DNA from: Deltaproteobacteria bacterium
GTDB lineage: Bacteria; Desulfobacterota; Binatia; Binatales; Binataceae
Length of the DNA stretch: 64,000 nt
NCBI GenBank assembly: GCA_027317185.1
Contig: DAHVFB010000007.1
Location: 1,064-65,063, forward strand
Reading direction: 5' to 3'
In this document: positions 1,957-21,165 of the stretch, piece by piece
Layout: every line of letters begins with the position of its first letter
Numbering within the stretch: the stretch's first letter is position 1
The notes under the pieces: model-generated
Told to the model about the DNA's origin: nothing
Seen by the model: only the letters and a program-made list of their open reading frames with translations
Database searches by the model: none
Position numbers and translations under genes: made by a program

Positions 1957-3717
1957 TCAGGTCTGCCCGCTGGCATATTTGGTGAATCGCTCCACCCTGC
2001 TTATCCCTTGCGAAAGACGCCCCCGATGGGCTCGCTGATGGCCGAGCAGGATGTTCAGGATTGCAAGCCTGCCATCTATGCGTCGCATACGATCCAGGAA
2101 AACAGACACCGTAACCGTCGACGCTGCTTCAATCACGTCGAAGCGATCAAGCCATCCGCTTACGCGCTCCTCGATTTGCGCAATCTCCGTCAGAAGGTTT
2201 TCCCGCGTGGCGCCAGAGTAGAGGCGAGACGCTCGATCGCGTTCCAACCCGGACAACACCTTGTCGCCAATCCAATCGGCGCGAAGAATCAAGAGCTCGA
2301 TAAGGGTTCGCGGCAATGGACGCGCCGCCGCGGAAGCGGCTGCCAGGTACTCGACTGCTTCGGAAACGTACAGGGGATTACCGTTAGCTCTGGAAACGAT
2401 CTCGCGCAAGGCGCCGGCCGGAAAGTTGAGGCCAGTGTAAGATGGCGACGCTTCGACAAGCTGCTTGATTTCGTTATTGGACAGCGGGGTGAGCCGAAAC
2501 CGGAACTCGACCATGGAGGAATTCATTTCCTCAGCCTGAACGAATGATGGCCGGTAAGAGAGAATTGTCAGGGACCGATCAAGACTCCCGATCATCTCCG
2601 ACATGCGGCTGCGCGATTGCCAGTCGATCCAGTGCACGTCGTCGATGACCATCAGTGTCTGGCCACCCAGTTTTCGGAGCCGGTCCAGAATTTCCGTCAC
2701 CGAGGGCATTGATGAACCGCCATCAAGGGCGCCGCTACCGAGGGGTTCAATTAGCCGGAGCCAGGATCGGCCCGCATAGTCGCCATAGGGCACGCCGCTG
2801 CAACCGAGTCGCGTCCAGCCGTCGAGAACACCCGATCGATCGCCTCCGCCCAGCCATTCACGGATGAGACGGGACTTGCCCTGCCCTGCCTCACCGATAA
2901 GACGACAGACCACGGCTGTATTGGCGGCCAGACGGAGCGCCACGTCCAACTGCTCCGCAACCTCATCTCTCCCGACCATTGGCGTCCTGTCCAGACCTAC
3001 ATGAGCGGTTCCGGAACGCTCGTCCTTCCGGCCCAGCAGCTCGAATACCGTGAATCCGCCCTCCATCCTGGAGAGGTTGAGATTCAGACCATTGAAATCG
3101 AATTGATCCACTATTCGCAGATATGCCGACTGGCCGAAGAACACCCGTCCCGGCTGAGCGAGCGACGCCAGGCGAAAAGCTTGCGCCGTGGAATTCGACT
3201 CAGCACTCAACACCACGCCCAGCGCTGTGTTGAGTGCTGAAGATTTGTCCAGCGCGGTCCCCAGCAATCCAAGCTTCCTTATAGCCAAAGCTGCCCGGGC
3301 CGCCTGTTCGGGACCGCCGCCAGCATCGGTCCAACACGCGATGGCGCCGCGCCGGCGAATGATCCGAACAATTCCACCGAATGCGGCAAATCGCGCGAGT
3401 ATTTCCTTGAAGCTGTTGCGCGCGTGGGCGGTAACGCTGGCGGTTTTCGAGCCGGATCTCAACTCGACCGCTATGATTGCGGCGCCGATCGCTTCCTGAA
3501 CATCCTCCGGCTCTCCTTCCGCCGGAACGACTCGGCAGATGCGCTCGTTGTGCTCGCAGCCATGCAACCAGGTAGCGCAGTCGTTGCAGTAATCCCAATC
3601 GGCCGGCCAATGACTGTGACACCGTGGACATTCGCGAAGGGTAACCTCGCTCGAAGAAACGACGAGGTGAGGCCATCCCGGTGTTGAGTGTTTAGGTGAG
3701 TGTTTAAAGGAAGCCAA
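1957..3717 (-). CDS. signal-transduction ATPase: N-terminal double zinc ribbon (CPRC..CNDC), adenylate/guanylate cyclase-like domain, P-loop NTPase (GEAGQGKSRL .. MVIDDVHWID), STAND-like
   Basis: Cys pairs at the N-terminus. A cyclase-homology-like segment. Walker A GxxGxGKS and Walker B hhhhDD. No C-terminal HTH seen. Confidence 0.5.
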   Translation of the reverse strand: MASFKHSPKHSTPGWPHLVVSSSEVTLRECPRCHSHWPADWDYCNDCATWLHGCEHNERICRVVPAEGEPEDVQEAIGAAIIAVELRSGSKTASVTAHARNSFKEILARFAAFGGIVRIIRRRGAIACWTDAGGGPEQAARAALAIRKLGLLGTALDKSSALNTALGVVLSAESNSTAQAFRLASLAQPGRVFFGQSAYLRIVDQFDFNGLNLNLSRMEGGFTVFELLGRKDERSGTAHVGLDRTPMVGRDEVAEQLDVALRLAANTAVVCRLIGEAGQGKSRLIREWLGGGDRSGVLDGWTRLGCSGVPYGDYAGRSWLRLIEPLGSGALDGGSSMPSVTEILDRLRKLGGQTLMVIDDVHWIDWQSRSRMSEMIGSLDRSLTILSYRPSFVQAEEMNSSMVEFRFRLTPLSNNEIKQLVEASPSYTGLNFPAGALREIVSRANGNPLYVSEAVEYLAAASAAARPLPRTLIELLILRADWIGDKVLSGLERDRASRLYSGATRENLLTEIAQIEERVSGWLDRFDVIEAASTVTVSVFLDRMRRIDGRLAILNILLGHQRAHRGRLSQGISRVERFTKYASGQT

Positions 3718-3789
3718 CGTGAAAATCCTGTGATGCCAGCCATCGCAGGAGTCATTGGCCGCTACGAAAACGGCAGGTTGTCAGAAGGC

Positions 3790-3951
3790 GGACTCCACCA
3801 CCCCAGCTACATAAGATACGCAATACAACTTCCCTAGATCAAGACGAATTGAAAAGGTCGATATTGGTTCGGCGGGCCAGCGCCGAACCACGCTGCTGTT
3901 GCTTCCTAGTAAGATTATGCTATTGTCCGCACGCTGGTGGTGGAGTTCACC
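3790..3951. repeat. 12-bp inverted repeat (GGACTCCACCACC / GGTGGTGGAGTtC) enclosing a 10-bp perfect hairpin (TGGTTCGGCG-ggccag-CGCCGAACCA), in a lower-GC divergent intergenic region
   Basis: Read directly from the sequence. Function unknown (small RNA, MITE remnant or operator). Confidence 0.3.
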
Positions 3952-4050
3952 GTAACCGCTCTTCCTGACGGAATAGCCAATAACTCCTAAGGCAATGAAT
4001 TTGTCTTGGGAGTTTTTTTTGCTGCGTTTTGTCTGCGGAGAGGATGAAAA

Positions 4051-4779
4051 ATGGACTCCAATCGACTCGCGCCGCTTTCGTTTGCTGCAAGCTCTTCAGC
4101 TCCTTACCACAACCTTAGAAAATGGACTGCGGATTGGACCCTGACCGGCCATGATCGTAGACCGCCCCATTCGCCTGGCGTATACCCCTTATGGCGCCTG
4201 ATTGCGGGTAGAAGCGGCCGTGGAAGGCCGGGCGGTCTCTTGGTAGCATGGACACTCTGGGAGCGATGCGCCAATCGGATATGGCCTTCCAGATCGATTC
4301 CAGGTGCGCCTTTTGGCCTGCTGCGATTCCGTCCGATGCGATACTGCGGTAATCCGCTGCTATTGCCCGACGGCGCCCTTATAGTTCCTGGCGATCTGGT
4401 AGGCGAGCTTCACTGCAACAATACTGCCCTCGCCACCCTCATTGAGTTCCGTGAGATAAGCCGGCTGCGTGCGTGCCGCGCCGATCTTAACAGCCTCGGG
4501 CGCTGGCTCGGGCAAAGCGGCGAGCTTCCCACGCTCAAGGCATTCTACGGCGTAACTCTCCTCTGGTGGGCCGCTGCGAGACTGGGATTCAACGTCCGAG
4601 AGCGGCAAGCACCATTACGTAATTGGTTCGACTGGATCTTTATGGGCGGGCTTCTGTTGATTTACGCAGCCGATGGAGCTACCCGAGCAAAACTCGGAAC
4701 CACTCTGAGCCGTACACCTCGCGAAGTTTGGATTTCACGTAAAGAACTCTCGCGTGGATACGCGGACAGTGTACGGTAA
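4051..4779 (+). CDS. hypothetical protein
   Basis: ORF with a strong RBS (GGAGAGGATgaaaaATG). No recognisable domain. Confidence 0.4.
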   Translation: MDSNRLAPLSFAASSSAPYHNLRKWTADWTLTGHDRRPPHSPGVYPLWRLIAGRSGRGRPGGLLVAWTLWERCANRIWPSRSIPGAPFGLLRFRPMRYCGNPLLLPDGALIVPGDLVGELHCNNTALATLIEFREISRLRACRADLNSLGRWLGQSGELPTLKAFYGVTLLWWAAARLGFNVRERQAPLRNWFDWIFMGGLLLIYAADGATRAKLGTTLSRTPREVWISRKELSRGYADSVR

Positions 4780-4868: not shown

Positions 4869-6044
<1,176 letters not shown>

Positions 6045-6194
6045 TCGCTGGACGTGGAGGATGGCGCTTGGGTGCGAGTCTCGCGTTGGATGGAGACCGA
6101 TGAGTCGTGAACGATGAGACAAATTCTGTGTCTCTGGGAAGTATCGTTGCATAGGTCGAACGGACTGCCGAAAATCGTGCGCATGGAACTGATT

Positions 6195-6252
6195 ACGGTG
6201 ATGAGGTTCCACCGAAACCGCTCCAGGCTTGTGTGATCTGGTGAACCCTACT
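6195..6252 (+). ncRNA. fluoride riboswitch (crcB motif), copy 1
   Basis: GGUGAUGAGGUUCCACCGAAACCGCUCC..P3(CCAG/CUGG)..UGAACCCUAC matches the crcB-motif core (GGnGAUGnnGUUCnCC .. AACCGC .. CCUAC). The loop GAGGUU can form the pseudoknot with AACCCU. It sits directly upstream of DUF190-CBS and crcB. Confidence 0.75.
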
Positions 6253-6283
6253 GCTGTTGATCATGCGTAGGGAGCTTTTTTTG
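6246..6283 (+). terminator. intrinsic terminator / expression platform of riboswitch 1
   Basis: CCCTAC-15 nt-GTAGGG stem followed by TTTTTTT. The 5' arm overlaps the CCUAC pseudoknot strand of the aptamer. Confidence 0.65.
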
Positions 6284-6409: not shown

Positions 6410-7690
6410 ATGTTCACCGGAAGGGCTAAACAGATCACGATCTTTATCGGCGAAACGGATCAATACCATCACCAGGCGCTGTATATGGCGATTATCGAGA
6501 TGCTCCGGCGCGAGGGCTGCAGCGGCGCGACTGCGACTCGCGGCGTGGCGGGCTTTGGGGCCTCATCGTTGATTCACACCGCGATGATTCTTCGACTGTC
6601 CTTCGATCAGCCACTCGTGATCACAGTCGTGGACCGCCCCGAGCGGATCGATCGCGTCCTCGCTCCTCTGCGGGAAATGGCTCCGAACGCCCTGATCACG
6701 GTTCAGGAAGTGGAAGTCGTCCAATCGGGTGCTCCCTTCAAAGAGGGACTGCCCGATTTGAAAGTTTCCGAAGTGATGCGTCGTGAAGTCGCCACGGTGC
6801 ATCCCGACAGCGCAATTACCCAAGTTGTCGAATTGTTGCTGGATAAGGACTTCACGGCGGTGCCGGTGATCGACGATGAGGGCAGGGTTGTCGGGATGGT
6901 GAGCGACAACGACCTGCTGACGCGCGGCGGGATGAACGTCACGATCAGTCTGAAAAAGGCGACCGATTTGGATTATGTGCGCGAGCTTCACGAGTCTCTT
7001 GAGAACGCGAACCGCAAAGTGTCGGAAGTGATGACGCGCGAGGTGGTGACGACTACTCCCGACGCCATTCTCGGACGAGCGGCCAGACTGATGGTCGAAA
7101 AACATCTCAAGCGGCTACCGGTCGTGAACAGCGATGGAAGGCTGGTGGGCATCCTGGGCCGCCTGGATGTTTTGAACACGATTGCGGCGGTCCATCTGCC
7201 GGAGTGGCATCCCGAGGCGCATGCCAACGGCGCACAGTCTACGGTGGCCGGCGTGATGACCCGCGAAGTTCCCACCGTCCACGAAACTGCGACAGTTGAA
7301 GAAATTTTCGATCTGCTCGTTTCATCGTCGCACAAGCGGGTAGTCGTGGTGGACGACAAAAGGCATGTTGTTGGAATTGTCGCCGACTCTGATTTGATTT
7401 CGAAGGTGAGCCGTGAGAGCTGGCCGGGGATAATGGAAATCCTCATCTCCAAGGTTCCAATCGGCCGAGTCAGCGCAGAAGCGCGCAAGCACATCCAGAA
7501 GTTGCGTGCCCGCTCCGCAAAGGAACTGATGACGCGCAACGTCGTCACGGTTCGCGAGAAGATGCCCGTGGCGAGCGCCTTGGCGTTGTCTGCGGAAAAG
7601 CGGGTTAAGCGGCTGCCGGTGGTGGACGCTGAAGGCGAGCTGGTAGGAATCGTCGGACGCACGGAAATGATGCGCGCACTGCTGGCCTAA
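6410..7690 (+). CDS. DUF190 (PII-like, COG1993) domain fused to four CBS domains
   Basis: N-terminal ITIFIGETDQYHHQALYMAIIEMLRREGCSGATATRGVAGFG is DUF190-like. It is followed by two CBS pairs (repeated h..VhT..P..VVDD.G.hVGIVS..DL). Confidence 0.85.
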   Translation: MFTGRAKQITIFIGETDQYHHQALYMAIIEMLRREGCSGATATRGVAGFGASSLIHTAMILRLSFDQPLVITVVDRPERIDRVLAPLREMAPNALITVQEVEVVQSGAPFKEGLPDLKVSEVMRREVATVHPDSAITQVVELLLDKDFTAVPVIDDEGRVVGMVSDNDLLTRGGMNVTISLKKATDLDYVRELHESLENANRKVSEVMTREVVTTTPDAILGRAARLMVEKHLKRLPVVNSDGRLVGILGRLDVLNTIAAVHLPEWHPEAHANGAQSTVAGVMTREVPTVHETATVEEIFDLLVSSSHKRVVVVDDKRHVVGIVADSDLISKVSRESWPGIMEILISKVPIGRVSAEARKHIQKLRARSAKELMTRNVVTVREKMPVASALALSAEKRVKRLPVVDAEGELVGIVGRTEMMRALLA

Positions 7691-7715: not shown

Positions 7716-8090
7716 GTGCTGGGAGTTTTGTTTGTCGCGATTGGCGGGGCCATCGGGTCGGCGACTCGTTATCTGGTGGGCGGATGGTTTGCATCCCGGT
7801 TTGGCCCGTCGTTTCCGTACGGAACCTTCGTGATCAATGTGACAGGGAGCTTCATTATTGGACTTTTCCTCGCATTTGCTCAGGAGCGGGTTTCGCTCAG
7901 CCCTTATTGGCGACTGTTCTTTGCGGTGGGCGTTGTCGGAGGCTATACTACCTTTTCGACCTTCGAGTATGAGTCGGTTCGATTGCTTCAGGATGGGGAG
8001 ATGCTGCTGGGGTCAGTTTATCTGGTAGGGAGCGTTGCGATGGGCGCTATCGGCGCCGTGGCCGGAATCACGCTTGGCAGTTGGATTTGA
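7716..8090 (+). CDS. crcB: fluoride ion channel CrcB/Fluc
   Basis: 124 aa, 4-TM. Motifs GGAIGSATRY and GGYTTFSTF are typical of CrcB. Confidence 0.9.
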   Translation: MLGVLFVAIGGAIGSATRYLVGGWFASRFGPSFPYGTFVINVTGSFIIGLFLAFAQERVSLSPYWRLFFAVGVVGGYTTFSTFEYESVRLLQDGEMLLGSVYLVGSVAMGAIGAVAGITLGSWI

Positions 8091-8110: not shown

Positions 8111-8139
8111 TTGACAGTCGGACAGCGCCTGCTACACTT
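8111..8139 (+). promoter_or_regulatory. candidate sigma70 promoter (TTGACA-16-TACACT) upstream of riboswitch 2
   Basis: Hexamers read from the sequence. Weak -10. Confidence 0.25.
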
Positions 8140-8153
8140 CTATGGACAGCGTT

Positions 8154-8210
8154 GGTGATGGGGTTCACCGCCACAACCGCCCTTTCCTGAGCAGGGCTGA
8201 TAACCCCTAC
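8154..8210 (+). ncRNA. fluoride riboswitch (crcB motif), copy 2
   Basis: GGUGAUGGGGUUCACCGCCACAACCGCCC-uuuccugagc-AGGGCUGAUAACCCCUAC is a near-consensus crcB motif. P1 is GGUG/CACC, P3 is GCCCU/AGGGC, and the pseudoknot is GGGGUU/AACCCC. Confidence 0.85.
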
Positions 8211-8241
8211 CGAGGTGTACGCCGGTAGGGGTTGATTTGTT
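8204..8241 (+). terminator. intrinsic terminator / expression platform of riboswitch 2
   Basis: Perfect 9-bp stem CCCCTACCG / CGGTAGGGG with a 10-nt loop, followed by TTGATTTGTT. The 5' arm overlaps the pseudoknot strand. Confidence 0.7.
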
Positions 8242-8340
8242 CAGGTTCCCTACTTGGTCATTCGAAATCTCTCCCGATCAGCACTTTCCACGCGCTGAAG
8301 GGGAGAGATATAACGCCGCATGGAGTGAGCGTAGCGGAGG

Positions 8341-9291
8341 ATGGCGCGTTCGGTCGGGTTCAACCTGCTTCAAGTGCTGTTCGTTGTCGCGCTGGCTCCG
8401 CTGGCGTCGGGCGTGTTGTCGCGCCTGAAGGAGATCGTTCAATCGCGGCGCGGTCCCAGCATTTTTCAGCCCTATCGCGACCTTCGAAAGCTGTTCAACA
8501 AAGACGAAGTCGTTTCGGAACACGCTTCGTGGATCTTCCGGTTTACGCCGTATGTCGTGTTTGTCGCGCCGATCTTCGTGACCACGTTGATTCCGGTGCT
8601 TACGAACTATCCGCTCTTTTTCGCCTTCATGGGCGATATGCTGGGCGGTGGGTTTGTGCTCGCGCTGGGTGGGTTTTTCGCGACGCTCGCCGCCGTGGAT
8701 ACCGCTAATCCTTACGGTGCGATGGGCGCGAGCCGGACACGGATGGTCGGCTTCCTTGCAGAACCGGTCTTCATGATCGTTTTCTTTACGGTTTCGTTCG
8801 TGGCTGGTTCTACAATCCCCTACATCGTGCAGCAGCATTGGGTGACGCCGCTCACAAACTTTTTCGCGCCATCGCACGTGCTGCTGGTGATTGCGTTTAT
8901 CATGCTCATCCTCGCCGAGGCGGGCCGCATTCCGGTGGACAATCCGGCGGGCCATTTCGAACTCGCCATGATCGACGAATCGAAAAGCCTCGAGTATTCG
9001 GGTCCCGGCATGGCGCTGATGAAATGGGGCGGTCAGATGAAGCTGCTCGTGCTGATATGTATTCTGCTCAACGTGTTGGTTACACCGTGGGGACTTGCCG
9101 GCGGCCGGAGCACCGCCGAAGTCCTGCTGGCGGCGCCGCTGGTGCTGTTCAAGGTGGGGATTTTTCTACTCGTGCTGGTGGTGATTGAATCCTCGTTCGC
9201 TAAATTGCGGCTCTTTCGGGTCAGTGAGTTTCTGGGCGCTGCTTTCGTAACCTCGGTCGTCGCAATGATCACCGGGCTATTGAGCTTTTAG
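8341..9291 (+). CDS. membrane subunit of complex-I/hydrogenase-4 type (NuoH/HycD/HyfC-like)
   Basis: 316-aa polytopic protein with NuoH/HycD-family topology and conserved charged loops. Confidence 0.8.
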   Translation: MARSVGFNLLQVLFVVALAPLASGVLSRLKEIVQSRRGPSIFQPYRDLRKLFNKDEVVSEHASWIFRFTPYVVFVAPIFVTTLIPVLTNYPLFFAFMGDMLGGGFVLALGGFFATLAAVDTANPYGAMGASRTRMVGFLAEPVFMIVFFTVSFVAGSTIPYIVQQHWVTPLTNFFAPSHVLLVIAFIMLILAEAGRIPVDNPAGHFELAMIDESKSLEYSGPGMALMKWGGQMKLLVLICILLNVLVTPWGLAGGRSTAEVLLAAPLVLFKVGIFLLVLVVIESSFAKLRLFRVSEFLGAAFVTSVVAMITGLLSF

Positions 9292-9303: not shown

Positions 9304-9984
9304 GTGGCGAACTCAAACGCACTGTTGACCTCGCTGAACGGGTTGGCCGCGGGTCTGTTCCTTATGAGTTCATTCGGGCTGGCGGCAACCCGCCAGATGC
9401 AGGGGTGCCTGCGATTCTACATTACCCAGTCGATATGCCTGGTTGTGTCCGCACTATTACTCGGACTTGGTTTGCATGCTCCGGACTTGCTGGCGGTGGC
9501 CGTGCTCGACGCGGTCGTAAAGCCTATCGTGATCCCTGTGTTGCTTCGACGCACGGTACCCGAGGCGGTTTTTCGAAGACGCGAGATCGCTCAGGTGCTG
9601 AATATTCCCAGTTCGCTTCTGATCGCGCTTGCGCTGACTCTGTTGGCGTATTTCCTGAGCGGATATCTCCCGCCCGCCACGGGGAGCCTGGCAAGCATCA
9701 ATCTCCCGGTTGGCCTTGCCGGGCTATTCATCGGCGTTTACACGCTCACGGTCCGGCGGGAGGCGGTGCCTCAACTGATTGGAATCTTTGGCATCGAGAA
9801 CGGCGCTCTTCTTTGCGGCTTCGCGATTGCGTCTGGCCTGCCGCTGGTCATCGAGATGGCCTTCCCGTTCGACATGCTGATCATCGCGCTGGTGATCGGA
9901 ATTCTGACGCGGATGACGCACGAACGCGTTGGAACGACTGAAGTCGGCGGCTTCACCAGTCTTCGGGAAGGTATCGGCAAGTGA
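9304..9984 (+). CDS. small membrane subunit (HyfE / NuoK-like)
   Basis: 226 aa, about 7 TM. Position and hydropathy match HyfE-type subunits. Confidence 0.6.
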   Translation: MANSNALLTSLNGLAAGLFLMSSFGLAATRQMQGCLRFYITQSICLVVSALLLGLGLHAPDLLAVAVLDAVVKPIVIPVLLRRTVPEAVFRRREIAQVLNIPSSLLIALALTLLAYFLSGYLPPATGSLASINLPVGLAGLFIGVYTLTVRREAVPQLIGIFGIENGALLCGFAIASGLPLVIEMAFPFDMLIIALVIGILTRMTHERVGTTEVGGFTSLREGIGK

Positions 9985-11432: not shown

Positions 11433-13022
11433 ATGCCAGCCGAACGGAAGCAAGTGCTCGATGAGGTTGCGGCTCGTTGGAACGGCAGAGTTCAATTGAG
11501 CCCGGAAGACGGTTCGGAATCGGCTTATCGGCTGGAGTGTGAACCTGCGGAGCTATCGGAGGTTTGCAATTGGTTGTTCTCCGATCTGCATTACAGTTTC
11601 GGCGGTCTGGTAGTCGAGCAACTAACGCGGTGGGAACTGCGGTACGTATTCTATGGCGGGCCGGGAGCGGGCTGGTTGCATGTGCTGACTCATCTAGCTC
11701 CGTCGGATTATCGGGTGCCCAGCGTCAGCAGGCTCGTGCATGCGGCTGACTGGCACGAACGCGAGGTCGAGGACCTGTTCGGGCTGGTCTTCGAGGGGCA
11801 TCCGCGCCTCGGCGATTTCGTACTTCACGACGACGCCTGGCATGAGGGCGTCGCTCCGATGCGTAAGAGCTTCGATGGGCGCCAACCGGTGACGCATCGT
11901 GCGCCCGACCAGAACTGGAAGCCGCGCCAGATCGTCGAGGAGGCGGGAGCGTTCTTGATGCCGATCGGACCCATCTATGCCACCGCAACCGGGCCGGTGC
12001 ACTTTCAGCTTGAAACCGTGGGCGAAGATGTAATCCGCGTGCAGCCGCGCCTCTTCTATGCATACCGCGGGCTGGAAAAGATCGCCGAGGGGCGCCGGGC
12101 TGAGGACGTTCTACTGATAGCGGAGCGTATCAGCGCAACATCAGCATTCGCTCATTCACTCGCGGTCTGTCAGGCCGTGGAGCGTATCTGCCACATGGAG
12201 GTGCCTCCGAGAGCGCGCGCGCTAAGAATATTCGTTGCGGAGTTCGAACGCCTTCGGCATCACGTCGCGGCGATCGAGGGAATCTGTGAATCGACCGGCC
12301 TTGCGGTTGCAGCCGCCCAGGCCTCGATTCTCGAAGAGGACCTGCTGCGACTTTCCTGTGTGCTGACGGGGCATCGTTATCTCTTCGGCCTCGGAACCTT
12401 CGGTGGCTTGACGATCAACCTTGACGATTCGGCCTGCAACCGAGCCGCAGCACAGGTGCGAGAAGTGGCCGAAAAGCTCTCGCGCCTTGAGCGGATGTTG
12501 AGCATATCCAGCAGTTTTCTAGACCGACTGGAGGAGGTCGGCCACGTTTCCGCAGGCGAGGCCGGCGACTTCGGGCTGGTCGGACCGATCGCCCGCGCCT
12601 CAGGTGTCTCGCGGGATATGAGGAAGGCCCAGCCATATTCCGGCTATGACCAGATCGAGTTTGAGGTTCCCCACGAATCGGAAGGAGACGGATACGCACG
12701 GTTGCGTATGTTCTTTCGAGAGGCGGCGCAATCAGTGCGGATCATCTCGACGGTTGGCCAAGCGGTTCCTGGGGGGCAGGTTCGCGCGCCGGAAGTCAGC
12801 TTCAGGCCGGGTGCCGCGCTGGGCTGGGTCGAAGCACCGCGCGGGGCCGCGTTGCATTGGATTCGCCTCGGCGAGGACGGCGTGGTGGATCGCTACCGAA
12901 TCATCACGCCGTCATTCGCGAACTGGCATGGCTTCAGGCTCGCGGCCGAAAACTTTGCGTTTCAGGATTTTCCGATAATCCTCGCGACGTTCGCGCTCTC
13001 AGTTCACGAGAACGATCGCTAG
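11433..13022 (+). CDS. fused NuoC-NuoD-like 'large subunit' (HycE/EchE-like) lacking NiFe-binding cysteines
   Basis: N-terminal NuoC-like 150 aa plus a NuoD/[NiFe]-large-subunit fold. The L1 motif position reads RISATSAFAH and the L2 position TPSFANWH, so both Cys pairs are replaced. Confidence 0.85.
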   Translation: MPAERKQVLDEVAARWNGRVQLSPEDGSESAYRLECEPAELSEVCNWLFSDLHYSFGGLVVEQLTRWELRYVFYGGPGAGWLHVLTHLAPSDYRVPSVSRLVHAADWHEREVEDLFGLVFEGHPRLGDFVLHDDAWHEGVAPMRKSFDGRQPVTHRAPDQNWKPRQIVEEAGAFLMPIGPIYATATGPVHFQLETVGEDVIRVQPRLFYAYRGLEKIAEGRRAEDVLLIAERISATSAFAHSLAVCQAVERICHMEVPPRARALRIFVAEFERLRHHVAAIEGICESTGLAVAAAQASILEEDLLRLSCVLTGHRYLFGLGTFGGLTINLDDSACNRAAAQVREVAEKLSRLERMLSISSSFLDRLEEVGHVSAGEAGDFGLVGPIARASGVSRDMRKAQPYSGYDQIEFEVPHESEGDGYARLRMFFREAAQSVRIISTVGQAVPGGQVRAPEVSFRPGAALGWVEAPRGAALHWIRLGEDGVVDRYRIITPSFANWHGFRLAAENFAFQDFPIILATFALSVHENDR

Positions 13023-13040
13023 TAGGTACGGCTAACCATC

Positions 13041-13811
13041 ATGAGCCAATGGGTAATCAAGGGTCTCAGAACCGGCGTTAAGAGCACCCGCTACCCGCGC
13101 GCCGAGGAAACTGCGGCTGGAATTTCGCCGGGCCTGCCGACTGCCGCGACACTCCCCTTGGAAGTGGCCCAGTCACTCGTGGCGCGTTGTCCGGCCGACG
13201 CTCTTGAACTGGCTCCGGCCGGCGTGGACGTGAACCTGCGCCGATGTATTCACTGCTTCCGCTGCGTGCGTGGCACGAACAGTCCGCTCGGATGGGAACA
13301 CAGCTACGAATGGGCCACCGCAGTTTCGGGTGGCAATGATCAAAAGCGGCAGTTCGGTCCGGCGTTCGATCGATCGGTTCACATCCTCGTGGTCGATACA
13401 GGCGACTGCGGGGCGTGCCTGAACGAGGTCCGACAGCTCAACAATCCCTACTACAACATGCATCGCCTCGGCTTCTTTCTCACTCCAACGCCACGTCATG
13501 CCGATGTGTTGCTGGTAGTCGGAGCGCTGACCGACCACATGCGAGTGCCGCTGCGCAAGGCCTACGACGCGATGCCCAGCCCGAAACGGGTCGTAGCCGT
13601 TGGGGCCTGCGCGCTATCGGGAGGAATCTTTGGCCGCAGCTTTATGTGCGCAGGCGGAGTGGCCGAGCTGCTCCCGGTCGATGTCGAGGTGCCGGGCGAT
13701 CCGCCACCGCCACTCGCGATTCTGCACGGACTGTTGGTTGCGGTTGGCCGGAAACCCCCGGCCCGTTTGCATCGCGCAGTGAGCGACTCGGTGGGGAACG
13801 CGTCGGGATGA
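13041..13811 (+). CDS. NuoB/HycG-like small subunit with N-terminal ferredoxin-like CxxCxxC segment
   Basis: C-terminal HILVVDTGDCGAC .. GACALSGG .. VPGDPPPP follows the NuoB pattern, with the 4th Cys replaced by Asp. The N-terminus has CIHCFRC. Confidence 0.8.
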   Translation: MSQWVIKGLRTGVKSTRYPRAEETAAGISPGLPTAATLPLEVAQSLVARCPADALELAPAGVDVNLRRCIHCFRCVRGTNSPLGWEHSYEWATAVSGGNDQKRQFGPAFDRSVHILVVDTGDCGACLNEVRQLNNPYYNMHRLGFFLTPTPRHADVLLVVGALTDHMRVPLRKAYDAMPSPKRVVAVGACALSGGIFGRSFMCAGGVAELLPVDVEVPGDPPPPLAILHGLLVAVGRKPPARLHRAVSDSVGNASG

Positions 13812-15971: not shown

Positions 15972-16961
15972 GTGCGGCTAGACTTAGCTTATGGGTACAG
16001 GTGGTGGAGTCCACCAGGAACCGCCATCCGGCCAATGACTCCTGCAGCGGGTAGAGACCCGCGGCGGGAGGACTCCTTCCGACTCTCGGGTCTCGAGACC
16101 GCTCCGACGATTGTTGATCGGAGACCGGAAGTGCTCGAGCGCCTGACAAAGAATTTCCGAGAACTCCTCAAGCAGTTCGGTGGCGCCTCGTGCTCCCTGT
16201 GCGCCGTATTGAAACGGCGGGAGGAAGAGGAAATCGAGCGAGTGCGCGCTAGCAGTGCCTCGGCCAGAGTCTTGTGCGGCCCGCATCTCGAGATGGTGCT
16301 GTTCGCGGTTGCCAGCCCGATGACAAGGGCGGGAGTGACTCGCAGTGCGATCGAATCGGTCCTCGCCGACCGATCCGATTGCGACGCGTGCTCAAGGCTC
16401 AGCCAAATCGAGCTTAGGCTTGCACGCGCGATCCGCCGTTTGGACGGCGGGATGCGCTTCAGGAAGGCGCTCGAATCGGCGCCGCTTTTCTGCCGCAAGC
16501 ATGCGGATATCGTCGCGCAACAGGATGTCGCGGTTAACTTTGCACAGGTTCAGAGGGCGAAGCTCCTCCACTTACGCGATGCGCTCGCTCAGGCCGAGTT
16601 GCGTAACGGCGCAGAGATGGAATCGCTGATATTGACGGCGCTCACCTATCTGGCCGCTCCTCTTCAGCAAGAACCGCCGCCGGTGGAAGTCCACGATTCC
16701 TCCGATTGCACGGAGAACGAGGCGGCGGAATTCGAGCGATGGGAGGAAGCACGCCAGTTCAAGCATCTGGCCGACCTCGAGAGCGAAGCGGCAGGCCTGC
16801 GCTATCGCAACGCCGTGCTTTCTGAAGAGAACCGCAGACTCAAGCTCGCCCATGTCGCTGGCGAAGCGATCCGGCGCGACCTTGAGCACGATCGAGCACA
16901 GCTCCTCGCCGCGGCGAAGGAACAGGATGCAAAACCGCTGAAGTTTTCGAGCCGACATTAA
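15972..16961 (+). CDS. hypothetical protein with two CxxC-(26-31 aa)-CxxH modules and a C-terminal coiled coil
   Basis: CSLC..CGPH and CDAC..CRKH. First gene of the overlapping-stop operon. Start codon uncertain. Confidence 0.5.
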   Translation: MRLDLAYGYRWWSPPGTAIRPMTPAAGRDPRREDSFRLSGLETAPTIVDRRPEVLERLTKNFRELLKQFGGASCSLCAVLKRREEEEIERVRASSASARVLCGPHLEMVLFAVASPMTRAGVTRSAIESVLADRSDCDACSRLSQIELRLARAIRRLDGGMRFRKALESAPLFCRKHADIVAQQDVAVNFAQVQRAKLLHLRDALAQAELRNGAEMESLILTALTYLAAPLQQEPPPVEVHDSSDCTENEAAEFERWEEARQFKHLADLESEAAGLRYRNAVLSEENRRLKLAHVAGEAIRRDLEHDRAQLLAAAKEQDAKPLKFSSRH

Positions 16962-17675: not shown

Positions 17676-18667
17676 GTACCAATAGTCATCGAAACACCGC
17701 TCCGGAGCCGGCTGCGATCACGGCTGACGCCGTAAAACTAGGCGATCTGAGACATCACCTCCGATCGCTGCACGATGGAGACGGCGCGGTGATTGAGGCA
17801 ATCGGCATCGGCGCTCCAGCGATTCCGGTCCTGCGGGAACTCCTGTTTGAGCGAGATCCCAGCGGGATTTTCGAGCCGCGGATGCGTGCCGCTCAGGCGC
17901 TGGCCGCGCTCAGAGCCACGAGCGAATTGCAGGAGTTTGTCCGCGAATGGAAATCGGCTTCGGACCCAGTCGAGCGGTTTGGAGACGAAGCGGTGCTGGG
18001 AGCCGTCGCCAGATTTTTGGGCGCCACGATGGAAGAAGACGTCTATGACATCCTGATGGCGATCGGCCGAAAGTATCCGGTGCCGGGCGTTATCGAAGCC
18101 TTAGGGCGATATGGCCGTTCGGAATCGGTTTCAATGATGCTCAGAGCCCTTGCCGATGACATCAGCCGGACCGCGGCGGAACAGGCATTAAGGATCCTCG
18201 GCGAGGCGGGAGTTCCCGCGCTCATCGAGGCCGCCATGCGGCCGGTCGCGAATTTTTGGGGCAGAGAAATTCCATCCAGTGTGCTTAGGCGGCGCAGCGC
18301 GTTAATGCTGCTGCTAGAATTTGGTGTTACGCGCGATACTTGGGACCGCATCCGCAGGTTGGTATCAGACTCAGACGACGAAATTTCGGTCCGTGCATGC
18401 GCAATTGGATTGACGGCGGGCATTCGTGCAGACCAGCGCGACTGCGCGTGGCGGATGTTGGAGTTACTGCGCGGGGTCGCGTGGCCGCTTCATCAGGAAA
18501 TCGAAAACTGCCTGATAGACAATTTCGCAATCGCTCGGGAGTTCGTCGATCAGGCTATCAAAGGACCGACGGACGACATCGCGGATGACTTCGCGCGCGC
18601 CCGATTCAAGCGATCACTCCGTCGGATCGCGGCAAGGGCGTTAACCAGACAGGAGCCCGGGAGTTGA
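17672..18667 (+). CDS. HEAT-repeat (PBS-lyase-like) protein
   Basis: Repeated approx. 30-aa helical repeats with (A/V)(A/R)xALG motifs. Overlaps its neighbours by 4 nt. Confidence 0.65.
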   Translation: MSTNSHRNTAPEPAAITADAVKLGDLRHHLRSLHDGDGAVIEAIGIGAPAIPVLRELLFERDPSGIFEPRMRAAQALAALRATSELQEFVREWKSASDPVERFGDEAVLGAVARFLGATMEEDVYDILMAIGRKYPVPGVIEALGRYGRSESVSMMLRALADDISRTAAEQALRILGEAGVPALIEAAMRPVANFWGREIPSSVLRRRSALMLLLEFGVTRDTWDRIRRLVSDSDDEISVRACAIGLTAGIRADQRDCAWRMLELLRGVAWPLHQEIENCLIDNFAIAREFVDQAIKGPTDDIADDFARARFKRSLRRIAARALTRQEPGS

Positions 18668-21165
18668 CCTCGATGCCGGAAGCAGCGCCGCAGCTCTCCA
18701 ATATCGCGGGTGACGCACTCCGCCACTATGACCATCTCAAACTCGAGATTGCGGCGATCGGGCAAGCGGCGATGCTTCAGTGCGCGAAGGATAAGGACGA
18801 GGAAGGCGAACGCGCTTTCCAGCGGTTGCTGGCGCGATTGGCGGAGGACCGCTTCAACCTTGCTGTGGTGGGTCCTTTCAGCCGGGGTAAGAGCAGCCTG
18901 ATGAACGCAATTCTCGGCTTCGATGGTTTGCCGACCGGCCTTCTTCCGCACACTTCCGTTATCACGACGGTCAGTTATGGACCACACGAACGAGTTCTGG
19001 TTCGCTGCGAGGGGTGGTCGCTTCCCCAGGAGATTCGACTGGATGGGCTCGCGGAGTACGTTACTGAACGCGGAAATCCGGGAAATCGGCGGCGGGTGAT
19101 GCAGGCGGAGATCGAACTGCCCGCTGAGATTCTCCGCCACGGCCTCCATTTCATCGATACGCCCGGTGTTGGTTCCGCGATCGTTGCAAACACCGAGACA
19201 ACGGACCGATTCCTCCCGGAGCTTGATGCGGCGATATTCGTCTCCAGTTTCGATTTTCCGCTCAGCGAGATCGATATCGAGTTTTTCCGAAAGGTTCGCG
19301 GGGCCGTCGGCGTCGTGTTCTTGGTGCTGAACAAACTTGATCTGGTCTCGGAGTCAGAGGCAGAAGAAGTAGTGAGATTCGTCCGCGAACGGCTCGACCG
19401 TGAACTGGGTATTGGGCGCTACGCGCTTTTCGCGGTTTCAGCCAAGCGCGGGTTAGAGGCGAGACTGCATGGAGACTCGAACGCTCTGTCCCAGTCGGGG
19501 TTGACCGAATTGGAAGCGGCGCTGGCGGCGTTCATGGCCGGCGATAAGACGCGCCAGTTGGCCGTGCGCGTGATGGACCGCCTCGTAACCCTGCTGCAAC
19601 GCGAGGTCACGCATGGCGGGTTCTCACTTGATCCAAAGCGGTCGCCTGGGCAGGTCTCCCAAGCCCTCGCCGGGTTCGATGAAAAGACGGCCGTCCTCAA
19701 AGCGCGGCGCGCGGAGCTCGTGAACCGCCTTGAAACGCTTGGCAATGATGCGTTGCGTGCCGTTGAGCGTCGTCTCGACTCCGCGTTCACGAACCTCAAG
19801 CAAAGCGCAGCTCATAAATTCACGCCGGACTTTCTCGCCGGTCGAATATTCTCCAGGCCGAATGCCTTCGATGCGTTCGCGCGCAATGTGCCGGCGTTTT
19901 GTGAGCGCGCTCTCACGCGCGAGTTACGAGTTTACGAGGCAGCCCTGAATGAGCATTTGGACCGGAGCGCCGGTCCGGTACGCTCGGAAATCCTTGCGCT
20001 ACCCGACGAACTCTTCGATATCGCGACGAATGGTAACGGAGGCGCTCGCGAGTTATCAGAGCTCTCCGCACAAGAGCGCGAAGCCGCACCACCATCGGTG
20101 GAAATCGCAGGGATCGCACGCGTCGAGTGGAGACCGCGGCTGCCGTGGTGGATATACCTGGCGCCACTGCGCTGGTCTTCGGCGGCGATGAAAAGAACAT
20201 TTGCCGTTGCGCTCGGCGAGTTGCTCGCGCAGTACCGATCCCGCATCGATGCGTCGATCCGCATCGACATGAACGAATATGCGGAGAAACTGGGCCGCGA
20301 GATTGAAAAAACAATCGACGGTCGAGCGGCTCGCGTCAGGAAATTACTCGCGTCGGGAGGTTTCGCACAGAATCGCAAGGTGTTCGAAGCGCTGCTGGAT
20401 CGGGCCAGAGATCTGCGTGGACAATTTGAAGATAAGGGAGACTGCCGATCGCGGTCTGAGGAGGGCGACCTCGGTGGCTCCGACGCAGTCGCTGCAAGTT
20501 CCGTGGCTTCCGTCGGCAGTGCGCATGGGTGTCCCGTCTGTCGTGCAGTCATCCGGACAGTTTTCGATTACCTGAGCAAGCTGCAATATGAATTGAGCAT
20601 CGACGCCGACGCTCAACACGAACACGCCGAAAGCGGCGGCTTCTGTTCAGTACACACGTGGATTTACTCCAGTATGACCTCGCCGGTAGCAATCTCGCGG
20701 GCCTATCCGCCACTGCTTGACTCGCTTGCCACGCGGCTGAAACGTGCCGCGCGTGATGCGGTCTCGGTCGAAGAACTGAACCGGAAAATCCGCGATCTAT
20801 CGCCTTCGCCGGAGAGCTGTAGAGTCTGCGCGGTCGCGCATCACGCGACCGATCAAGCGGTCACGGATATCGTCCGGATTCTCGACCCAGACGGACGCAG
20901 CGAGGCGCCGACCTTATGCTTGCCTCACTTGGCGATTGCACTTCAGCTCGGATCAGATTTGAAGAGCGCCCATCTGCTATCCACACAATGTGCGCGCGCT
21001 CTGCTCCGGGATGCCGATGACATGCGCCATCACGCTCTGAAGCACGACGCGATCCGGCGAGGCCTGATGACGACGGACGAGCGTGATGCGCATCAGGCCG
21101 GCCTCAGAAGATTGGCCGGCAACATGCTGCTGACATTGCCACCCCGTGGTGATGATCGGCTTTGA
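18664..21165 (+). CDS. bacterial dynamin-like GTPase with C-terminal double Cys3His module
   Basis: G1 GPFSRGKSSLMNAILG, G3 FIDTPGVGS, G4 LNKLD. C-terminal CPVC..CSVH and CRVC..CLPH. Confidence 0.8.
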   Translation: MTSMPEAAPQLSNIAGDALRHYDHLKLEIAAIGQAAMLQCAKDKDEEGERAFQRLLARLAEDRFNLAVVGPFSRGKSSLMNAILGFDGLPTGLLPHTSVITTVSYGPHERVLVRCEGWSLPQEIRLDGLAEYVTERGNPGNRRRVMQAEIELPAEILRHGLHFIDTPGVGSAIVANTETTDRFLPELDAAIFVSSFDFPLSEIDIEFFRKVRGAVGVVFLVLNKLDLVSESEAEEVVRFVRERLDRELGIGRYALFAVSAKRGLEARLHGDSNALSQSGLTELEAALAAFMAGDKTRQLAVRVMDRLVTLLQREVTHGGFSLDPKRSPGQVSQALAGFDEKTAVLKARRAELVNRLETLGNDALRAVERRLDSAFTNLKQSAAHKFTPDFLAGRIFSRPNAFDAFARNVPAFCERALTRELRVYEAALNEHLDRSAGPVRSEILALPDELFDIATNGNGGARELSELSAQEREAAPPSVEIAGIARVEWRPRLPWWIYLAPLRWSSAAMKRTFAVALGELLAQYRSRIDASIRIDMNEYAEKLGREIEKTIDGRAARVRKLLASGGFAQNRKVFEALLDRARDLRGQFEDKGDCRSRSEEGDLGGSDAVAASSVASVGSAHGCPVCRAVIRTVFDYLSKLQYELSIDADAQHEHAESGGFCSVHTWIYSSMTSPVAISRAYPPLLDSLATRLKRAARDAVSVEELNRKIRDLSPSPESCRVCAVAHHATDQAVTDIVRILDPDGRSEAPTLCLPHLAIALQLGSDLKSAHLLSTQCARALLRDADDMRHHALKHDAIRRGLMTTDERDAHQAGLRRLAGNMLLTLPPRGDDRL

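Follow-up and report, generated by a model that had tools for sequence, protein, structure and literature searches.

An Ehr-type complex with an emptied [NiFe] pocket and a cross-phylum link to fluoride riboswitches

The ehrABCDLS genes of Geobacter sulfurreducens were reportedly described by Coppi in 2005, and the energy-converting hydrogenase-related (Ehr) complexes are said to have been treated by Marreiros et al. in 2013. Ehr complexes resemble the group 4 hydrogenases without having the ligands of the [NiFe] site; they are widespread, yet papers of 2020 to 2025 call their function unknown. Ehr are also described in Methylacidiphilum and the Nitrospirales, where about half of the genomes encode them. 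Here, a six-gene operon of this type is analysed in a window of 64,000 nucleotides (nt; the window being the whole stretch of DNA analysed, positions 1,064 to 65,063 of the forward strand of contig DAHVFB010000007.1, GenBank assembly GCA_027317185.1) from a Deltaproteobacteria bacterium of the Binataceae (Binatia). The complex is a member of a known, functionally unassigned family, and what is new is a link, seen across phyla, between this family and fluoride riboswitches.

The operon consists of six tightly packed plus-strand genes, the start and stop codons of which overlap or abut (GTGA at 9981; ATGA at 13808, where the last gene starts over the stop of the small-subunit gene). A preliminary description of the stretch, made from the sequence alone, had placed the module among Ehr; this assignment is supported by hydrogenase-like large and small subunits that lack [NiFe] ligands, by NuoH-, HyfE- and NuoL/N-like membrane subunits, and by the lack of an NADH or formate input module, all of which are shared with the described Ehr. 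The order here, H-E-N-L-S-A, is rotated with respect to the A-B-C-D-L-S names of Geobacter. The nearest homologues carry the annotation Candidatus Binataceae. A locus of Nitrospira japonica (L010), from the order in which Ehr are explicitly described, shows the same arrangement of genes at 61-62% identity and may be one of the published Nitrospirales Ehr.

The closest solved structures are those of the Escherichia coli formate hydrogenlyase (FHL), with HycE matched at E = 1.8e-64 (phmmer against the PDB) and HycG, HycD and HycC as listed in Table 1. As in FHL (Hyc) and hydrogenase-4 (Hyf) of group 4a, the CxxC of the small subunit is kept and the membrane set is Hyf-like. By contrast, the [NiFe] cysteines, the fourth proximal cysteine and the HycI-processed C-terminal extension are missing, and FdhF, HycB and HycF are not encoded with the complex. 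With the Q- and P-modules of complex I (NuoB, C, D, H, L and N), the complex shares fold families, architecture and the NuoC-NuoD fusion known from E. coli, whereas the positions of the quinone ligands His38 and Tyr87 are Thr and Ala, the NuoB-like subunit has a CxxC instead of a tandem CC, and NuoI, NuoA, NuoJ and NuoE-G are absent.

A further relative is the MBS complex of P. furiosus (PDB 6U8Y), in which a proximal [4Fe-4S] cluster held by three cysteines is the catalyst and equivalents of Nqo4 His38/Tyr87 and MbhL Glu21 are lacking. Like MBS/Mbx, the complex described here is hydrogenase-derived, has lost [NiFe] chemistry and is without the quinone His/Tyr or the hydrogenase Glu; its proximal site offers three canonical cysteines in sequence, to which the conserved Cys203 might add a fourth ligand. 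The two differ in that MBS has four proximal cysteines in sequence, of which C25 is too distant to bind, while here the cysteine of the CPP motif is substituted. In addition, MbsL keeps two of the four large-subunit cysteines, and MBS contains a complete Mrp module as well as MbsN, a NuoI-like subunit; here there are no such cysteines, no MbsN equivalent and two antiporter-like subunits. Sequence similarity to MBS is weak (6u8y_J, 8e-14; 6u8y_L, 1e-23).

The crcB motif, or fluoride riboswitch, and its regulon were reportedly described by Weinberg in 2010 and Baker in 2012. In the crcB-motif and fluoride-riboswitch papers and in a 2024 review, 'formate hydrogen lyase' is listed among the most common regulated genes, and the review treats it as a true FHL and interprets its presence as a switch of metabolism towards fermentation. 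Only one class of the regulon is more common than the Na+/H+ antiporters, and the homeostasis of pH and membrane potential is regarded as central to fluoride resistance. The present locus shares with the regulon a canonical RF01734 element with an overlapping terminator and the neighbours crcB, enolase and phosphoesterase, with MutS-like genes at related loci; it departs from the literature reading in that a regulated complex of this family cannot be a hydrogenase. No paper joining Ehr or hydrogenase-like complexes with fluoride was found in the searchable literature, which is not proof of absence.

Fluoride riboswitches and the Ehr operon

Rfam searches of the 64-kb window at the gathering threshold return two matches only, both to the fluoride riboswitch RF01734 (Table 1). 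The first aptamer ends 125 nt ahead of the start codon of the NuoH-like gene on the same strand. Its 3' strand, AACCCCUACCG (8202-8212), doubles as the 5' arm of an intrinsic terminator and pairs alternatively with 8223-8233; the RNA fold of 8190-8345 has an energy of -65.9 kcal/mol (z = -3.2). A competing terminator is the standard fluoride-ON design described for the RF01734 class, and because this is the known mechanism of the class, the overlap of aptamer and terminator is inferred to form a fluoride-ON transcriptional switch. The preliminary description spoke of a complex of unknown substrate and missed this riboswitch control, which now supplies a concrete physiological context.

Assignment of the element at 8145 to the adjacent crcB gene as a 3' element was rejected: a promoter-like site and a terminator accompany the element, which lies past the stop codon of crcB and precedes the NuoH-like gene also in loci that have no adjacent crcB.

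A genome scan, of the kind that the preliminary description had proposed, returned 80 loci with large subunits 52-79% identical to the one in the window. These loci come from more than 10 phyla, with Binatia, Verrucomicrobiota, Planctomycetota, Nitrospirota, NC10, Actinomycetota, Acidobacteriota, Alpha- and Gammaproteobacteria, Desulfobacterota, Bacillota and Bacteroidota represented, and the gene order H-E-N-L-S-A is common to all 80. The membrane subunits are the best conserved, the NuoH-like subunit being 68-93% identical across phyla (tblastn). A covariance model (R1) built from 36 riboswitches of these loci gives 149 matches in 1.47 Mb. With R1, a same-strand riboswitch is located 30-382 nt before the NuoH-like gene in 56 of the 66 loci that have enough upstream sequence, compared to a chance expectation of about 3% even at the enriched local density of matches. 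In six more of the 66, a riboswitch lies within about 2.4 kb upstream, before an intervening gene. The Rfam model at its gathering threshold likewise detects a riboswitch upstream of the operon in each of nine loci checked from outside the R1 training set. Recurrent neighbours include genes typical of the fluoride regulon (crcB, CBS-DUF190, enolase, MutS-like genes in tandem and metallophosphoesterase) as well as those of an MFS transporter and a dynamin-like GTPase. De novo clustering of open reading frames (ORFs) from these 80 loci was used only for recurrent real families, as the high GC content gave rise to spurious antisense ORFs and, thus, to noise.

Thus, this enzyme family probably belongs to the means by which cells defend themselves against fluoride. 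The favoured explanation, to which a probability of roughly 0.55 is given, is that the Ehr-type complex is a fluoride-stress ion translocator that supports the homeostasis of pH and membrane potential alongside CrcB. At least for this family, the 'formate hydrogen lyase' of the fluoride regulon appears to be this non-hydrogenase complex. The FHL annotation misleads both the Ehr and the fluoride fields, and the link corrects the label; it also gives Ehr a testable function in fluoride or acid tolerance.

Pocket and iron-sulfur ligands of the peripheral arm

The large subunit lacks the cysteines that hold the [NiFe] site. The query 'aeRISATSAFAHs' aligns with 'sdRVCGICGFAHs' of HycE (7z0s_E), and both cysteines of the first ligand motif (L1) are replaced by Ser, in agreement with the preliminary description. 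The second motif (L2) is a different matter. The earlier assignment of L2 to 'TPSFANWH' (residues 492-499, nt 12906-12929) does not hold, as this segment pairs with 'AATYANWP' of HycE and 'VVPST.WN' of group 1 hydrogenases and forms a separate conserved block about 30 residues ahead of L2. The L2 equivalent is instead ALSVHENDR, directly before the stop codon, with Ser523 and Glu526 at the cysteine positions. Its placement is inferred: the phmmer alignment stops at residue 539 of the HycE chain and is followed by an ungapped continuation based on the HycE sequence and numbering, in which L2 is presumably 'DPCYSCTDR', cleavage is taken to occur after Arg537, and an offset of +12 is assumed for the 581-residue PDB chain. 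On this register, the large subunit has no C-terminal extension and ends at the Arg equivalent to the putative HycI site. The earlier claim that all four [NiFe] cysteines are gone therefore stands, on corrected grounds.

The replacements are conserved. The 120 closest large subunits (59-93% identity) read ER[IF][SA][GA]T[ST]AFAH at L1 and LSVxENDR at the C-terminus. With the query included (n = 121), the first L1 Cys column holds Ser in 74, Ala in 28, Cys in 12 and Asn in 7, and the second holds Ser in 73 and Thr in 48; Ser523 is found in 120 and Glu526 in 119. Hydrogenase activity, which the preliminary description considered excluded, is effectively so for this protein, in which the four ligand positions are Cys-less, while 12 of the 121 family members retain one L1 cysteine. 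A frameshift or sequencing error, which had been named as a possible cause of the lost motifs, is ruled out by full-length ORFs and by the same lengths and motifs across independent assemblies.

The quinone ligands of NuoD are not matched either. Alignment of the query GPIYATATGPVHF with GPNHPSAHGAFRI of E. coli NuoCD sets a Thr at the position of His38, and alignment of R-I-S-A with R-I-E-Y of NuoCD sets an Ala at that of Tyr87 (numbering of T. thermophilus Nqo4). The proton-relay Glu of hydrogenases (HycE 'sdEPgHF') is a Gly in the query, with Glu in 64, Gly in 34 and Ala in 23 members of the family. Since the [NiFe] cysteines, the quinone His and Tyr and the relay Glu are all lost, the pocket cannot, on these alignments, be a [NiFe] site or a quinone site of the canonical type, and the six-subunit complex is, judged in the same way, a relative of complex I and the group 4 hydrogenases with an emptied catalytic pocket.

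These residues also bear on the automatic annotation, by which the complex would be a genuine FHL or group 4 [NiFe] hydrogenase. The best structural matches are HycE, HycG, HycD and HycC, and homologues are named 'formate hydrogenlyase subunit 5' and 'Ni,Fe-hydrogenase III' by JGI. The four [NiFe] cysteines are, however, absent with conserved replacements, the relay position is Gly, the FHL partner proteins are not encoded, and all six proteins miss the NCBIfam equivalog cut-offs for hydrogenase-4, FHL or Nuo subunits (e.g., 59.8 bits for a cut-off of 136; two others are given in Table 1). Moreover, the hosts include aerobes (Nitrospira, Methylovirgula and Terriglobia), obligate ones among them, as well as anaerobes, with many derived from soil collections of metagenome-assembled genomes, and the aerobic hosts argue against a role in fermentative hydrogen production. 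A true hydrogenase is thus barely credible here.

The small subunit retains three of the four cysteines of the proximal (N2-equivalent) cluster, as first described. C123xxC126 (a hydrogenase-type DCGAC, not a tandem CC) and G-A-C190-ALSGG are kept, while 'VPGDPPPP' aligns with 'IPGCPPTP' of HycG and 'VPGCPPRP' of MbhJ, such that the CPP cysteine is Asp220 (codon GAT at 13698-13700, which differs from TGY at two bases). In a set of 120 small subunits, the fourth position is Asn in 96, His in 10, Gln in 8, Asp in 2, Ser in 1 and Ala in 1, and never Cys, with two of the 120 sequences unmatched by the pattern or otherwise variant; the position is thus nearly always polar (Asn, His, Gln or Asp). 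The AlphaFold2 model of the small subunit has a pLDDT of 74, and its best Foldseek matches are HycG and MbhJ, together with the NDUFS7 fold.

The N-terminal CxxCxxC segment noted earlier is likewise confirmed as C69, C72 and C75, and it is preceded by a conserved C50-P51. In clostridial 2x[4Fe-4S] ferredoxins, the ligands of one cluster are the 'CP' of motif 1 and the CxxCxxC of motif 2. The N-terminal cysteines correspond to the ligands of exactly one ferredoxin cluster, those of the other cluster being absent from the extension, and one extra [4Fe-4S] cluster is predicted. C50, C69, C75, C123, C126 and C190 are invariant among 121 small subunits, and C72 is present in 114 of them. JGI names the small-subunit homologues 'FixX/YjdI-like'. 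As a Pfam scan of the operon proteins finds no NuoI/HycF-like subunit, the half-ferredoxin domain may replace it. The 'unusual Fe-S complement' of the preliminary description is therefore real, although it is a clade-wide trait and not peculiar to this locus.

A cysteine shifted to a non-canonical position had been raised as another way of accounting for the missing ligand. Cys203 (FMCAGG; 13647-13649), which is present in 118 of 121 sequences, could in principle act as a substitute fourth ligand. In a family sample clustered at 50%, it accompanies the loss of the fourth cysteine in almost every relative concerned, but it is also found in 13 relatives that have all four canonical cysteines, as well as in HycG, and, thus, would not be a specific compensation for the lost CPP cysteine.

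The proximal site varies among relatives. Locus L081 encodes a small subunit of 45% identity with a four-Cys proximal site beside a Cys-less large subunit, and it carries the riboswitch. In the sister clade termed 'DED' (L084 and L085), the proximal cysteines are all replaced (Asp/Glu/Asp/Ser), while the six-gene order and the N-terminal cysteine set are kept. This natural series of four, three and no proximal cysteines offers material for the study of complex I-type coupling without a redox substrate.

The conserved ligands are consistent with an MBS-like redox pump, in which a ferredoxin would pass electrons to the N-terminal [4Fe-4S] cluster and from there to a three-Cys proximal cluster with an open iron, and an acceptor in the former [NiFe] pocket would drive proton pumping. 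This is unlikely. MBS provides the precedent, since its three-Cys proximal [4Fe-4S] cluster is the catalyst and it likewise lacks the quinone His/Tyr and the Glu; the three proximal and four N-terminal cysteines are conserved as given above; the residues usual at the fourth position might coordinate iron or hydrogen-bond; and the L081 locus, with all four proximal cysteines, also carries the riboswitch. Candidates for the acceptor would be a sulfur compound, a quinone bound at a site that has changed, or some other small molecule. By contrast, a NuoI/MbsN-like two-cluster subunit and a conserved donor or acceptor gene are lacking in the 80 loci, among which no recurring ferredoxin, formate dehydrogenase or NuoEFG-type partner is found. 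The 'DED' clade keeps the operon and the N-terminal cluster without the proximal cysteines, which makes the proximal cluster dispensable in close relatives, and the missing cysteine itself differs, being that of CPP here and the first of the CxxC in MBS.

The emptied cavity may also be considered as a fluoride site. In this case, Ehr would be a fluoride-resistance machine in which fluoride ion or hydrogen fluoride (HF) is bound in the cavity that once held the [NiFe] or quinone site, and complex I-type coupling exports fluoride or fluoride together with protons. The cavity would be lined by Ser523, Glu526 and further Ser/Thr residues, beside a proximal cluster with an open or weakly held iron. 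A parallel would then exist with the DAB and CupA modules, which repurpose antiporter-like subunits for CO2 hydration. Direct handling of fluoride, including this lining of the cavity, is regarded as quite improbable.

Two side observations concern these variant loci. In L081 (860-2304), the large-subunit gene is broken by stops and frameshifts in the Logan assembly, owing to assembly error or a decaying copy. Two strong fluoride riboswitches (44 and 47.5 bits), together with genes for AAA_16, MFS and dynamin proteins, flank the locus. In the 'DED' clade, a riboswitch-like element upstream of the Ehr genes (L084:3538-3604 and L085:473-557) has a P1 stem-loop (GAUGAGGYU), an inserted hairpin and AACCGCC...GCUGAUGGCYUCU. 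The inserted stem may mark it as a variant of the fluoride aptamer, but it is sub-threshold (21.6 bits with Rfam; 16.5 and 12.0 bits with R1) and is not counted as evidence; the loci L082, L083 and L086 are too short to inform on this point.

Proposed ion translocation by the membrane arm

The HycC-like subunit, aligned with HycC of the PDB, retains the Glu of transmembrane helix (TM) 5 ('lwESMS'), the Lys of TM7 ('gvKAG'), the Lys of TM11 ('NHSiyKALLF') and the Glu of TM12 ('GFvSEW'). Ion translocation as part of the fluoride response fits the known importance of pH and membrane-potential homeostasis and of Na+/H+ antiporters in the fluoride regulon, and it likewise agrees with hosts that comprise aerobes as well as anaerobes. 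In the proposed mechanism, which comprises fluoride induction, ion pumping, partnership with CrcB and a source of energy, fluoride would turn on transcription through the RF01734 riboswitch, the aptamer of which competes with the terminator. HF entering the cell would dissociate and leave the cytoplasm acidified and loaded with fluoride, which would exit down the membrane potential through CrcB, the fluoride channel encoded next door. The Ehr membrane arm (the NuoH-like, HyfE-like and two antiporter-like subunits with their Lys/Glu relays) would expel protons or cations and thereby sustain the membrane potential. The peripheral arm would hold at most two Fe-S clusters (the four-Cys half-ferredoxin and the three-Cys proximal cluster) and would either take electrons from a ferredoxin-like donor or serve as a structural or regulatory cap.

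With respect to the drive, the invariant Fe-S ligands favour electron transfer as in MBS, whereas the series of four, three and no cysteines and the lack of a conserved redox partner favour the use of existing ion gradients as in Mrp. The latter can be extended to a complex that is solely a secondary, Mrp-like cation/proton antiporter running on existing gradients, with the peripheral arm a vestigial cap or a redox-sensing regulator. Such an antiporter would agree with the place of Na+/H+ antiporters in the fluoride regulon, with the match of the antiporter-like subunits to MrpA and MrpD structures, with the varying number of proximal cysteines across relatives and with the lack of an electron partner conserved among the loci. 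It is nonetheless doubtful, since purifying selection acts strongly on the peripheral subunits (large subunit 53-93% identical, Fe-S cysteines invariant), which would be costly for a cap, and equivalents of MrpB, MrpE, MrpF and MrpG are absent.

Several points weigh against the proposal of a fluoride-stress ion translocator. The invariant Fe-S ligands of the main clade suggest a real redox function. The 'DED' clade has the same operon without the proximal cysteines, and a redox and a non-redox version cannot both be general. In four of the 66 loci whose upstream sequence is long enough, there is no riboswitch at all. In Geobacter, the Ehr proteins are reported to be more abundant with formate, a hint that certain Ehr subgroups serve other purposes.

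Features of the window and minor observations

The positions of the operon genes, motifs and riboswitches are collected in Table 1. On the sequence evidence, window positions 390-22937 (about 22 kb) are a fluoride-response island of at least five riboswitch-headed units, three of which have sub-gathering leaders. The unit headed by the riboswitch at 15991-16051 starts with the gene of an uncharacterized CxxC protein. It goes on with those of a metallophosphoesterase, a HEAT protein, a dynamin-like GTPase that has a DUF6062 region, an MFS transporter and a second HEAT protein.

Table 1. Positions of the Ehr operon, its motifs and the riboswitches of the window
Feature	Position	Strand	Basis
NuoH/HycD-like membrane subunit, 316 aa	8341..9291	+	Pfam PF00146 4e-32; PDB HycD 7z0s_D 1.6e-41
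HyfE-like small membrane subunit, 226 aa	9304..9984	+	NCBIfam hydrogenase-4 membrane subunit 3e-16, under curated cut-off; weak NuoK-type PF00420
HyfF/NuoN-like antiporter-like subunit, 482 aa	9981..11429	+	PF00361 2e-47; NCBIfam hydrogenase 4 subunit F 324 bits (cut-off 610)
Fused NuoC-NuoD/HycE-like large subunit, 529 aa	11433..13022	+	PF00329, PF00346 and PF00374; PDB HycE
L1-equivalent motif RISATSAFAH, both Cys replaced by Ser (residues 234, 237); complex I quinone Tyr position is Ala235	12126..12155	+	Alignment to HycE and E. coli NuoCD
L2-equivalent motif ALSVHENDR, residues 521-529, then stop; Cys positions are Ser523 and Glu526	12993..13019	+	Ungapped continuation of the HycE alignment; family counts
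NuoB/HycG-like small subunit, 256 aa, with N-terminal ferredoxin-like extension	13041..13811	+	PF01058 1e-22; PF22117 weak; PDB HycG 2.3e-29
C50-P51, then 19 residues on C69xxC72xxC75	13188..13265	+	Conservation and ferredoxin spacing
Proximal (N2-equivalent) site, C123, C126 and C190 kept, fourth position Asp220	13407..13700	+	PDB alignment, family counts
HyfB/HycC/NuoL-like antiporter-like subunit, 716 aa	13808..15958	+	PF00361; PDB HycC 3.6e-55; NCBIfam hydrogenase 4 subunit B 506 bits (cut-off 667)
Sigma-70-like promoter, TTGACA, 16-nt spacer, TACACT, TG extension	8111..8138	+	Consensus scan 10/12; pattern match only
Fluoride riboswitch aptamer (crcB motif) between crcB and NuoH-like gene	8145..8216	+	RF01734 47.3 bits (gathering 34), E = 5e-10; model R1 56.7 bits
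Intrinsic terminator, stem 8202-8212/8223-8233, then tail GAUUUGUUC	8202..8242	+	Sequence; RNA fold
Second fluoride riboswitch, directly 3' of last operon gene	15991..16051	+	RF01734 42.0 bits
crcB	7716-8090	+	Pfam CRCB
Riboswitch-like leader ahead of AAA_16 ATPase (1957-3717) and enolase (503-1828)	3739-3811	-	30.2 bits (sub-gathering)
Riboswitch-like leader ahead of YkoP-domain protein (4051-4779) and MetK (4869-6044)	3927-3996	+	32.0 bits (sub-gathering)
Riboswitch-like leader ahead of CBS-DUF190 (6410-7690) and crcB (7716-8090)	6188-6257	+	22.2 bits (sub-gathering)

A further, weak riboswitch-like match lies downstream of the enolase gene at 390-461 on the minus strand (24.5 bits with R1); it is absent from the Rfam results at E <= 1 and is probably insignificant.

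Tandem MutS-like ATPases of about 510 residues (ITGANQGGKST), which are missing from this window, adjoin the Ehr operon in 21 loci, often with a fluoride riboswitch of their own, and fit the association of the crcB motif with 'mutS' known from earlier work. The loci with such a pair include L005, L015, L026, L029, L032, L034, L037, L038, L049, L061 (e.g., 2760-4301), L062, L070, L071 and L075.

The dynamin-family GTPase of the window (18664-21165, plus strand) has 833 residues and a Cys-rich C-terminal region with a weak match to DUF6062 and with CxxC...C..H pairs. Similar CxxC and C..H pairs are present in the ORF at about 16089-16961, which has no Pfam match. About 28-30 of the 80 loci, across phyla, have a relative of the GTPase in the neighbourhood of the Ehr operon.

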